63,780 bases of DNA, filler included, from Collodictyon triciliatum (GCA_043381765.1; 7 parts of 7 records of this genome joined end to end with filler, not necessarily neighbours in it); one strand, 5' to 3'; counted from the whole stretch's first letter, positions 35,312 to 38,232 are shown. Notes: generated from the sequence alone by a model not told the origin. Translations and numbers: made by a program.

Positions 35312-36199
35312 NNNNNNNNNNNNNNNNNNNNNNNNNNNNNNNNNNNNNNNNNNNNTTAATTAATTAANNNNNNNNNNNNNNNNNNNNNNNNNNNNNNNNN
35401 NNNNNNNNNNNTTCTTTTTCTTTTTCTTTTTCTTTTTCTTTTTCTTTTTCCTTTTCCTTTTCCTTTCCTTTTCCTTTTCCTTTTCTTTTCCTTTTTCCTT
35501 TTCTTCGGTGTCATTCAGCCAGTAAATGGATAAACTTCATCGCAAAGGTTGTGACGAACTTGGTTTTATTCCTTTCAAGCACAACACGTTTTATACAACG
35601 AAAGTATACCAATATATAGCAATTTATTGTACTGACAACCATCGAATTAAATCCGGATTGACAAAAGCAGGAGCTTTGATGAATCCAAGAAAGAACCATA
35701 ATGATATAAAAGTATAATTATAATATATAATAAGATTAAAAAAATACTTAATAATCTCATTCTATTCCTATAATCAATTTATATTTTATTTTGCATTTAT
35801 GTGTATTATCAATATCATTAAAATTCAAAGATTACAACAAGCCCTTGCCTTGGCCCAGACAGAACCCACCCCTATAAAAATGCCACCAAACATGCATTTG
35901 AAAAAAGCATCCTATCCACACTTGCGGCGGTAATCATGTTGGTTGGGGCCGATATGTTGACTCTCAGACGCAATGGCTATACGGCCGTCTTTTCGAACTC
36001 GCTGAATCGGCTCTCAGCGTTTTGTCTCGAATCACTTAAAAAAAACTTGATGTGTTTGTTTGCCACAATGCGCACATTTTGAGAGTCTCAGTAGATGCTT
36101 AATTTTACCTGACTCGATTTTGTGCAGTTGTTTTATTTTTAAATTGACTGTTTGACTGAAGTTTTATTAAAATTGAAAACTCGGTAGTTATCTAAAGGA

Positions 36200-38100
36200 A
36201 AAAGTAAAACAAAGACTTTCAGGTGAAGAAAAGAAAACGCCTTGAGTTTGAGAATCTAAAGTCTGTAAAACTAGACTATGGAAATGTGAAAACATCTCTA
36301 AAGTCGATTGTAAAGAATGCGGATGACTATTACAAAATCAACGATACGGCTTTATTGAGTCATAATTTGGTTACCGACACTTATCTGTTTGCAAGATGTT
36401 ACATATTGAAATCACAACTAGTCTCAACAATTGATGTTTTTTTTCTTTGTACGCTTTAAAGATAGTTGGAATAGTTTCATAAGATAAGCACGCATGATTA
36501 AAACGTTCAGAAATGAGTATCGACATAATGACTTTTTATCTCAATGATTTTCGATTCCTTTTGACCCAAGAAGAACGCTCTCCGTTGGTTAGGCTGTCTC
36601 ATGTACTACCTTACTTGGCGAAGCAAATGTTAAAGCTTATCACAATGACATTAAGGAGCATTTTGCAAAGAGGTTACTGCGCTTTACAAATCAAACAATT
36701 CCTAAAGATGAGAATATGACGGAAGCTATTAAAAAGGCAGAGTTACGAAGTTAAAAAAAGACATCTTCAAGAAACTCGAAATATCGGAATAAGATAAAGG
36801 ATGGGCTAGAATGCATTTAAATCGTATCATTCCCAGCGATACCGTAAATGGTATCGAATATGACGTCAAAGTCAATCCAAATAAGAACACATTCCATGTC
36901 AGATTTACATGAGTCGCATTTTTGAGGACATTGGAACCACACTGTTTCAACCAATATCTATAAGGACTGACAATATACCGTCTCATATTACTCTAGATAC
37001 CGCATGTTTGATAGATATTAGTATCATCTGGAAAAACATCATTAATGAAGAATAAATCAGAATGCAAAGAGACACTATGAGATAAGTTCTTTGAAATGAA
37101 GAAGAGGGTCTTTCATCAAAGAGGCTACAATTTTAAATACATGATACAAACAAAGGAGTTTGCAGTGTCATTATTATTTGAAAGAAAGGCATTTCAAATT
37201 CAAAATCCAAATATAATAAAAAAACCAAGAATATGTTTATATAGATGAACTTTCCGAAGAGCAGTTCTCTTTATTAGCGAAAATAAATAGTTGGAGTGGA
37301 TGCAGGCAAGTTTATTTGGTTTACATGGTGGATGAGACAGGTAAGAAATTACGTTACACGACTCACCAAACAAGACATGATAGCAAATCTCTTAAAAATC
37401 ACAAAATACTCTTGCGCGAGAAAAAAAAAAAAGAAAAGTACAATACTTCAGGGATATATGTATGGCAACAGATTTTCAGAGTGTTATTTCTTTTGGTGCC
37501 ATGACTTTTGAAGAGAATCAGCAGTTTGAGACATTAAGAGTATCTTTAATCGATTTAGAGACAGAACTGAGTAAACATAATTCATGCACGGTCAATTATG
37601 AAAAATTTCGAGAATATGTATCTATGAAATCAAGATACCAGATAGAATTTTCCAGATTTTATGAACACGTAACTTTTCGAAAGATGAGATGGAGACAGAT
37701 TGTTAATACAAAAAGAAGTGAACTATTGTTTATGGACCGAGTCGAAAAGACATTAGGGAAGGATGTTGTACTGGCGTGTGGAGACTGGAGCAGAAAATCT
37801 CCGATGAAACATTTTATGCCAACAATCGGAAGAGGATTACGAAAAATACTATCCAAACGTTTTGAAACAGTTAGTGTAAATAAATTTAGAACCTCCAAGA
37901 TGTGTTGCAACTGCGAAAAAGAACTGGATTATATGAGACTGAAAGGAAATTCAAAAAAGGTGTATAGATGTCTCATATGTAAAGAATGCAATCGCTCAGA
38001 AAGCAAACAAAGTGTATTCTTGACAAGGGACTTTAACAGCACTAATAATAGACTCAACAAAGTTGTTTTAATCCTTCCAAATATGCATACACCTTCCTCT
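36200..38100 (+). pseudogene. Fanzor1 pseudogene, copy 3 (longest intact C-terminal ORF, 37462-38157)
   Basis: KKRKRLEFENLK..KTSLKSIV, VGVDAGK, KKLRYT, ETELSKHNSCTVNYEKF, FRKMRWRQ, GDWS..PTIGRGLRK, VNKFRTSKMCCNC (RuvC-II E to K), CLICKEC, TRDFNS. Confidence 0.92.
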
Positions 38101-38107
38101 AAAAAAC

Positions 38108-38232
38108 AGGCTGTTGGGTCTTCCCTGGCAGCCTTAATCACTACACAATCTGTATGAAAAAAAAGTGGTGAGACCTTGGATACTGGCGCACTGGGTTTAC
38201 CAATCGGAAGATTTATGTGTATATCCTTCTAG
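38108..38232 (+). ncRNA. Candidate Fanzor omegaRNA scaffold, copy 3
   Basis: AGGCTGTTGGG/CCTGGCAGCCT 11-bp stem, ATCACT/AGTGGT stem and terminal AATC-GGAA-GATT hairpin. Confidence 0.6.

Follow-up and report, generated by a model that had tools for sequence, protein, structure and literature searches.

Fanzor proteins were defined by the signature D-X(125,275)-[TS][TS]-X-X-C4 zinc finger-X(5,50)-RD (Bao and Jurka 2013, PMC3627910), and 3655 unique Fanzor sequences have been collected across thousands of eukaryotic and viral assemblies (Jiang et al., PMC10530073). The latter work reports a rearranged RuvC-II glutamate beside TS-xx-C as well as N-terminal import signals, and in the Fanzors tested the guide RNA is encoded in non-coding DNA on the 3' side, up against the right end of the element (PMC10530073). 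Described carriers include CMe-1A of Cyanidioschyzon merolae, a ~3-kb Fanzor1-only family of ~150 copies, each ~80% identical to the consensus and without terminal repeats, and the Tc1/mariner-borne Fanzor1 of large DNA viruses, such as PGv-1 (PMC3627910). In this study, we analyzed a stretch of 63,780 nucleotides of Collodictyon triciliatum DNA (GCA_043381765.1; hereafter the window, taken at its full length), in which three copies of a Fanzor1 element are found. With a probability of about 0.9, a single DNA element encoding Fanzor1 only was inserted at three sites independently, long ago, and its copies are decaying neutrally. This element resembles CMe-1A in its size of ~3 kb, in encoding Fanzor1 only, in being an old, diverged, multi-copy family and in lacking terminal inverted repeats; target-site duplications and transposon class are likewise unassigned in both. 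It differs in its host and sequence family and in its state, since some of the ~150 CMe-1A copies are intact, whereas the three copies seen directly here are all broken.

Three copies of one repeat unit

A sequence-only reading of the window had claimed three colinear copies of ~2.9 kb on three contigs with unrelated 3' flanks, and the alignments bear this out. Pairwise blastn of the three regions gave single alignments of 2796–2893 columns with 83.6, 85.3, and 85.5% identity (E = 0), and the copy-2 unit, used as a blastn query, hit exactly three sites in the whole window (25030–22197, 28700–25838, and 35486–38209). The unit is ~2.86 kb long and colinear in the three copies, which lie on three different contigs. 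By blastn and alignment, copy 1 occupies 22197–25030 on the minus strand, with a 5' side that perhaps reaches ~25052, copy 2 occupies 25838–28700 on the minus strand and alone has a flank on either side within its contig, and copy 3 occupies 35469–38233 on the plus strand. A three-way alignment showed a common, sharp 3' end (...CCTTCTAGT) at 22197, 25838, and 38233, and the sequence past this end is unrelated among the copies. A true 5' flank is present in copy 2 only, at ~28700: copy 1 enters (TAA)n on its 5' side before its contig ends at 25187, and the contig of copy 3 opens at 35412 with a (CTTTT)n run, in which the first ~100 nt of the copy are lost. The start proposed for copy 3 in the sequence-only reading, 35412, is thus the edge of the contig and not that of the element.

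The window is made up of seven contigs (1–4421, 4522–25187, 25288–35311, 35412–50016, 50117–55526, 55627–60587, and 60688–63780) joined by six spacers of the form N44-TTAATTAATTAA-N44 (4422–4521, 25188–25287, 35312–35411, 50017–50116, 55527–55626, and 60588–60687). Microsatellites form most of the contig ends. Each copy lies at or near an end of its own contig, where assemblers break at repeats, as would be the case if the three were assembly duplicates of a single locus. This explanation, which the sequence-only reading had named as one that would overturn it, has next to no probability and is already refuted, because the copies are 14.5–16.4% apart, carry distinct lesions, and have unrelated 3' flanks; the loci are separate.

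The element consists of a leader of ~850 nt, an intronless ORF of ~630–646 codons, and a tail of ~75 nt after the stop. In copy 3, the leader (35469–36222, plus strand) is non-coding as far as tested, and its equivalents in copies 1 and 2 lie at 24185–25030 and 27854–28700 on the minus strand. Frame-aware alignment to an intact relative, described below, places the ORF remnants at 22246–24184 (copy 1, minus), 25885–27853 (copy 2, minus), and 36223–38163 (copy 3, plus). The tail of copy 3 runs to the shared end at 38158–38233 on the plus strand.

Fanzor1 identity of the encoded protein

The longest open piece of the ORF, in copy 3 (37462–38157, plus strand), encodes 231 amino acids that span the C-terminal RuvC-II, zinc finger, and RuvC-III regions. 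Searched against a collection of 5.8 billion proteins, this piece found a single long relative, an intact protein of 648 amino acids (hereafter P0001) that is 66% identical to it over 99% of the query. In frame-aware alignment, P0001 is colinear with each copy from residue 1 to the end, and introns are unnecessary; identical codons amount to 371 of 621, 376 of 630, and 389 of 628 aligned, or ~60% per copy. The sequence-only reading had reassembled the fragments into a protein of ~630 codons. That description falls well short of the actual damage, which amounts to 9–11 frameshifts and 3–7 premature stops in each copy. tblastn of P0001 across the window matched the three copies only.

Searches of the Protein Data Bank (PDB) connected both proteins with the solved Fanzor1 structures. 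With phmmer, P0001 matched GtFz1 (E = 2.1e-28), PpFz1 (2.7e-24), and SpuFz1 (3.7e-23), all other chains having E values of at least 0.38, and the 231-residue piece matched PpFz1 (5.4e-10), SpuFz1 (7.3e-7), and GtFz1 (5.2e-4) with nothing else at E ≤1. Short N-terminal pieces gave weak, consistent matches to GtFz1 (0.0041) and PpFz1 (0.056). A full-library search with P0001 returned 3147 clusters at E ≤1e-3 and 537 at E ≤1e-30, and 49 members drawn from the P0001 clusters were used to build an alignment and profile of the family. Against the PDB, the profile matched PpFz1 at 7.5e-107, SpuFz1 at 4.4e-106 (profile positions 7–597 of 606), and GtFz1 at 2e-76. The best chains other than Fanzor1 were LaTranC (4.8e-4) and a chain named 'Transposase' (9j09; 0.037), and no Fanzor2 or TnpB chain was recovered in this search. 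Of the 1916 stop-to-stop pieces in the window, the corresponding HMM matched 27, every one of them inside the three copies and in profile order, and the 231-residue piece alone was matched with E = 1.2e-63. In Pfam, PF07282 was matched by 34 of the 49 family members, and for P0001 and the single pieces it appeared below threshold only.

The fold gave the same assignment. An AlphaFold model of P0001 (pLDDT 86.2, pTM 0.84) has an unstructured N-terminus, and Foldseek aligned it with SpuFz1 at E = 1e-27 and TM scores of 0.74/0.79. Normalized to the P0001 model, TM scores were 0.65–0.74 for the Fanzor1 structures versus 0.21 for Fanzor2; the mimivirus Fanzor2 structure (9b0l) was found with E = 7e-5 and TM 0.21, and ISDra2 TnpB with E = 1.3e-3. 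These profile, fold, and HMM matches support the assignment of the family to Fanzor1 rather than to Fanzor2 or TnpB, by profile and fold as proxies and not by a tree. Fanzor1 membership had been proposed in the sequence-only reading, with a failure to match Fanzor/TnpB profiles or fold as the contrary outcome; the P0001 family matched Fanzor1 in both, with profile E values from 7.5e-107 to 2e-76 and the SpuFz1 fold match. The solved proteins SpuFz1 (8gkh), PpFz1 (9cf0), and GtFz1 (9cer) are like the family over the full length of profile and fold, although they share only 18–21% identity in structural alignment and the copies in the window are pseudogenes. Fanzor2 and the TnpB proteins of IS607 and IS200/IS605 have the RuvC and zinc-ribbon core in common with the family but are much more distant, with a fold TM of ~0.2, and the element contains no TnpA or serine recombinase.

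At the level of residues (P0001 numbering), none of the 49 family members departs from D364 or E555, and at least 90% of them have D604. The family agrees with the solved Fanzor1 in this pattern of two fixed RuvC residues (D and E) and a third, near-invariant D, and in the arrangement D-x193-TS-xx-C4 finger-x-RD. The Fanzor/TnpB C-terminal motif is present in P0001 as D364, T558-S559, C562/C565...C584/C587, and R603-D604, and it recurs in the translations of the copies, which differ in their lesions. The motifs quoted in the sequence-only reading were all recovered in the frame-aware translation, namely, KKRKR, KTSLKSI, TYLFARCYIL, VGVDAG, GDWS, V[DGN][EK]FRTSK, CCNC...CKEC, and RDFNSA. E555 stands three residues ahead of T558-S559 and is found in every one of the 49 members, and the upstream GDWS block contains no Glu; from its position, E555 may be the 'alternative glutamate' of the rearranged Fanzor1 RuvC-II. 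KKRKR forms residues 2–6 in P0001, copy 2, and copy 3, and a basic N-terminus of this kind, as in the P0001 family, occurs in many Fanzors (PMC10530073). Both E555 beside TS-xx-C and the KKRKR N-terminus would fit the published Fanzor reports, and KKRKR may direct nuclear import of the protein.

Decay of the copies and size of the family

The three copies are pseudogenes, with no open reading frame, and two of them are without one catalytic residue. Counted upstream of P0001 residue 620, copy 1 has 11 frameshifts and seven premature stops, copy 2 has nine frameshifts and three premature stops, and copy 3 has 10 frameshifts and four premature stops. The copy-specific catalytic residues are as the sequence-only reading described them: D/E/D in copy 1 (D at 23103–23101, E at 22537–22535, and D at 22388–22386), G/E/D in copy 2, where the RuvC-I Asp is replaced by Gly (GGC, 26752–26750), and D/K/D in copy 3, where the RuvC-II Glu is replaced by Lys (AAA, 37882–37884). 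Copy 1 indeed keeps the triad, yet its zinc finger has lost C562 to Ser and C587 to a stop. It is thus improbable that any of the three could make a working protein.

Differences between the copies amount to 0.13–0.15, 0.14–0.17, and 0.16–0.19 per site at codon positions 1, 2, and 3, respectively, and 27–29% of codons with a single difference are synonymous versus 20% among all possible single changes. Leaders are 85.7–87.0% identical between copies, and ORFs are 85.8–88.0% identical. The nearly even differences over the codon positions, together with a leader as similar as the ORF, indicate that copies inserted from one common source have since decayed neutrally, and not that live lineages have diverged.

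Could the gene be alive, its breaks being sequencing errors, short introns, or the product of a variant genetic code? In each copy, homopolymer runs are close to three of the 10–11 frameshifts, which is what sequencing errors might leave, but only these three are within 6 nt of a run of at least five, and most are elsewhere. No premature stop is shared between copies, and the stops stand opposite varied P0001 residues (Y, L, E, C, K, R, S, and W), so that no codon reassignment fits. Catalytic and zinc-finger residues are substituted as well, third positions show no excess of differences, and P0001 aligns without introns. Because most frameshifts are away from homopolymers and the stops are private, sequencing error, introns, and a variant code do not account for the breaks, and a live gene is extremely unlikely.

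The sequence-only reading had also proposed that a majority consensus restores the catalytic triad, and the majority-rule sequence of the three copies does recover D/E/D. It is not open, however: five frameshifts relative to P0001 persist, near residues 74, 175, 338, 358, and 407, with a stop at 630, and the majority of three was rejected as a way to obtain an intact frame. All five remaining sites are homopolymer or low-complexity in the alignment, a point on the side of a live gene; three copies are too few to separate a shared lesion from alignment noise.

No DNA run of the organism turned up among sequencing runs (best share, 0.27). Contigs of four sequencing runs (including X1, X2, X3, and X11) were mapped to 35500–42500 at 80% likeness, 482 of them from X1 and 490 from X2. 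Over the element, the X1 and X2 contigs were short, numerous, and mostly 80–95% alike. At the variable element sites listed, 2–20 distinct contigs overlapped, nearly all of them unlike copy 3 there, and some contigs had an extra base at the private frameshifts of copy 3 at 36633, 37217, and 37313. Summed depth was 122–441 over 35500–38073 versus 0–17.5 in the unique flank at 38308–38775. With up to 20 distinct variants per site, the family is multi-copy, and the results support a family of many diverged copies from which no count is derivable. The proposal that the element is dispersed and probably high-copy therefore holds for three separate loci directly and for a multi-copy state indirectly from two runs, which do not give the count. 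X3, a metatranscriptome, covers a neighboring peptidase gene and nothing on the element, where X11 has a depth of 0–5; this is not evidence of silence. A search for longer close relatives of the open piece found only P0001 among 862 candidates, and one for near relatives found four fragments of 129–223 amino acids with 61–81% identity, which say little either way about intact copies.

Relatives, element ends, and host surroundings

The nearest sequence neighborhood of the copies is the Tc1/mariner-borne Fanzor1 of viruses, as exemplified by PGv-1 (PMC3627910) and by two metagenome loci, L005 and L010. The ESM Atlas clusters nearest to P0001 belong to PF26935 (DUF8286; score 0.99) and are 92–100% Viruses, mostly Nucleocytoviricota. 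A metagenome scan with the copy-3 piece gave 74 pattern matches, of which 11 were confirmed as loci with 39–45% identity; a scan of viral contigs with P0001 gave 36 pattern matches, none of which was confirmed. The five metagenome loci examined among the 11 are AT-rich and densely coding, and the examined loci carry Erv1/Alr, NUDIX, HNH, PIF1 helicase, GT25 glycosyltransferase, and rhodopsin genes. In L005 and L010, both giant-virus-like freshwater contigs, an ORF for a DDE_3 and helix-turn-helix (HTH) transposase (1321–2337) lies directly upstream of a 595-amino-acid Fanzor1 relative (2834–4618), which is the arrangement reported for large viruses (PMC3627910). L010 also has a rhodopsin ORF and a PIF1 helicase close by (5349–5990).

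These virus-dominated clusters and the relatives on AT-rich, densely coding, virus-like contigs would be expected if the copies were pieces of an endogenized giant-virus genome and not transposon insertions. Such an origin is very unlikely, because one and the same 2.86-kb unit recurs at all three sites, ending sharply at a shared 3' position amid flanks that are unrelated, no other virus-like ORF lies beside any copy, and the flanks contain intron-bearing host genes and an expressed, spliced neighbor. Exons of a CFAP65/HYDIN-like ciliary protein (29536–32328, minus strand) adjoin copy 2, and a U1-C zinc-finger exon lies at 33156–33545 on the minus strand. Unlike the viral Tc1/mariner-borne Fanzor1, which have a transposase, the copies in the window are without a DDE_3 remnant and are sited in host nuclear DNA.

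For three insertions of a Fanzor1-only element, the following mechanism may be proposed. The element resides in the nuclear genome of this flagellated freshwater eukaryote, and its ORF, when live, encoded a Fanzor1 nuclease with a KKRKR nuclear-import-like motif, a REC/WED half, a C4 zinc finger, and a split RuvC with D364, E555, and D604. By analogy with the tested Fanzors, the guide RNA would come from the 3' end of the element, and the protein that binds it would cleave DNA matching the guide. The nuclease would help the element to persist, and a transposase supplied in trans would move it, which is our suggestion for its mode of mobilization. From the position of the guide RNA in tested Fanzors, the tail and the last ~200 nt of the ORF would be the expected scaffold site of a putative guide RNA. 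An 11-bp hairpin (AGGCTGTTGGG...CCTGGCAGCCT) is present at ~38107–38133, at the end of the Fanzor reading frame and just 5' of the copy-3 stop; it is retained in all three copies, partly via G-C to G-U changes.

Several results weigh against parts of this reading. The 284 nt at 37950–38233 fold only mildly better than shuffled sequences (z = -1.94), nine of 200 of which fold equally well; compensatory change was seen in two of 68 predicted pairs, among three decayed copies; and nothing in Rfam was matched over 22000–38600 at E ≤1. Terminal inverted repeats are absent from the ends of the three copies, and no target-site duplication was found, copy 2 alone having both flanks. The copies hold no transposase remnant: tblastn with the L005 DDE_3 reached E = 0.24 at best in the window, outside the copies. 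As for copy number, the type of the X1 and X2 runs is a guess, so that their element contigs may be transcripts or carried-over DNA, and their variants may include alleles or strains, 'up to 20' not being a copy number. Separately, an internal 20-nt pair in copy 1 (22252–22271/24811–24830, 85%) is partly kept in the other copies and was treated as chance.

Other host genes surround the copies. A CS-domain exon (20703–21113, plus strand) adjoins copy 1, and an intronless gene for an M12/reprolysin-like metallopeptidase (38914–40298, plus strand) lies near copy 3. The latter is a 57% GC stretch within otherwise AT-rich DNA and is expressed, with poly(A) near 40348; its nearest Atlas clusters among those shown are all bacterial (Pseudomonadota), and it is a candidate for horizontal transfer into a eukaryote. 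X1 and X2 match this gene with 1–4 differences over 326–877 nt, which, together with the poly(A) tail and a spliced contig, indicates that both runs include RNA from this organism or from one very close to it. RNA contigs of X1, X2, and X3 cease to match at 38901, after a polypyrimidine tract and AG, the ATG being at 38914, and have ~22 other letters upstream of this point (X2 consensus, AGCTAACACTACCTAATCAAAG). AGCTAACACTACCTAATCAAAG is absent from the window at ≤3 mismatches, and a literature search for a 22-nt leader found no paper; these letters would come from a trans-spliced leader or else from a 5' exon located far away. One X1 contig joins 41603–41748, 41937–42075, and 42220–42371, and the skipped parts of 188 and 144 nt have CT..AC ends, indicating GT..AG introns of a minus-strand gene at 41603–42371. 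Spliced and polyadenylated host transcripts thus adjoin copy 3.

The locus alone matters little: Fanzor1 is widely catalogued, decayed multi-copy families are expected, and the three copies are the unremarkable, dead remains of an element whose kind is known. What they add is a host with a multi-copy Fanzor1-only family, although tables in PMC10530073 and PMC3627910 may already include this host, and a link from this family to relatives on giant-virus-like freshwater contigs. A doubtful extension is that the family is still alive, so that the numerous 80–95% variants in the apparent RNA assemblies would comprise transcripts of at least one intact master copy with a working 3' guide RNA, and that it was exchanged recently between freshwater giant viruses and the protist host, given that the nearest relatives lie on virus-like contigs beside a Tc1/mariner-type transposase. 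Intact copies, should the genome contain any at other sites, could provide another compact nuclease for testing.

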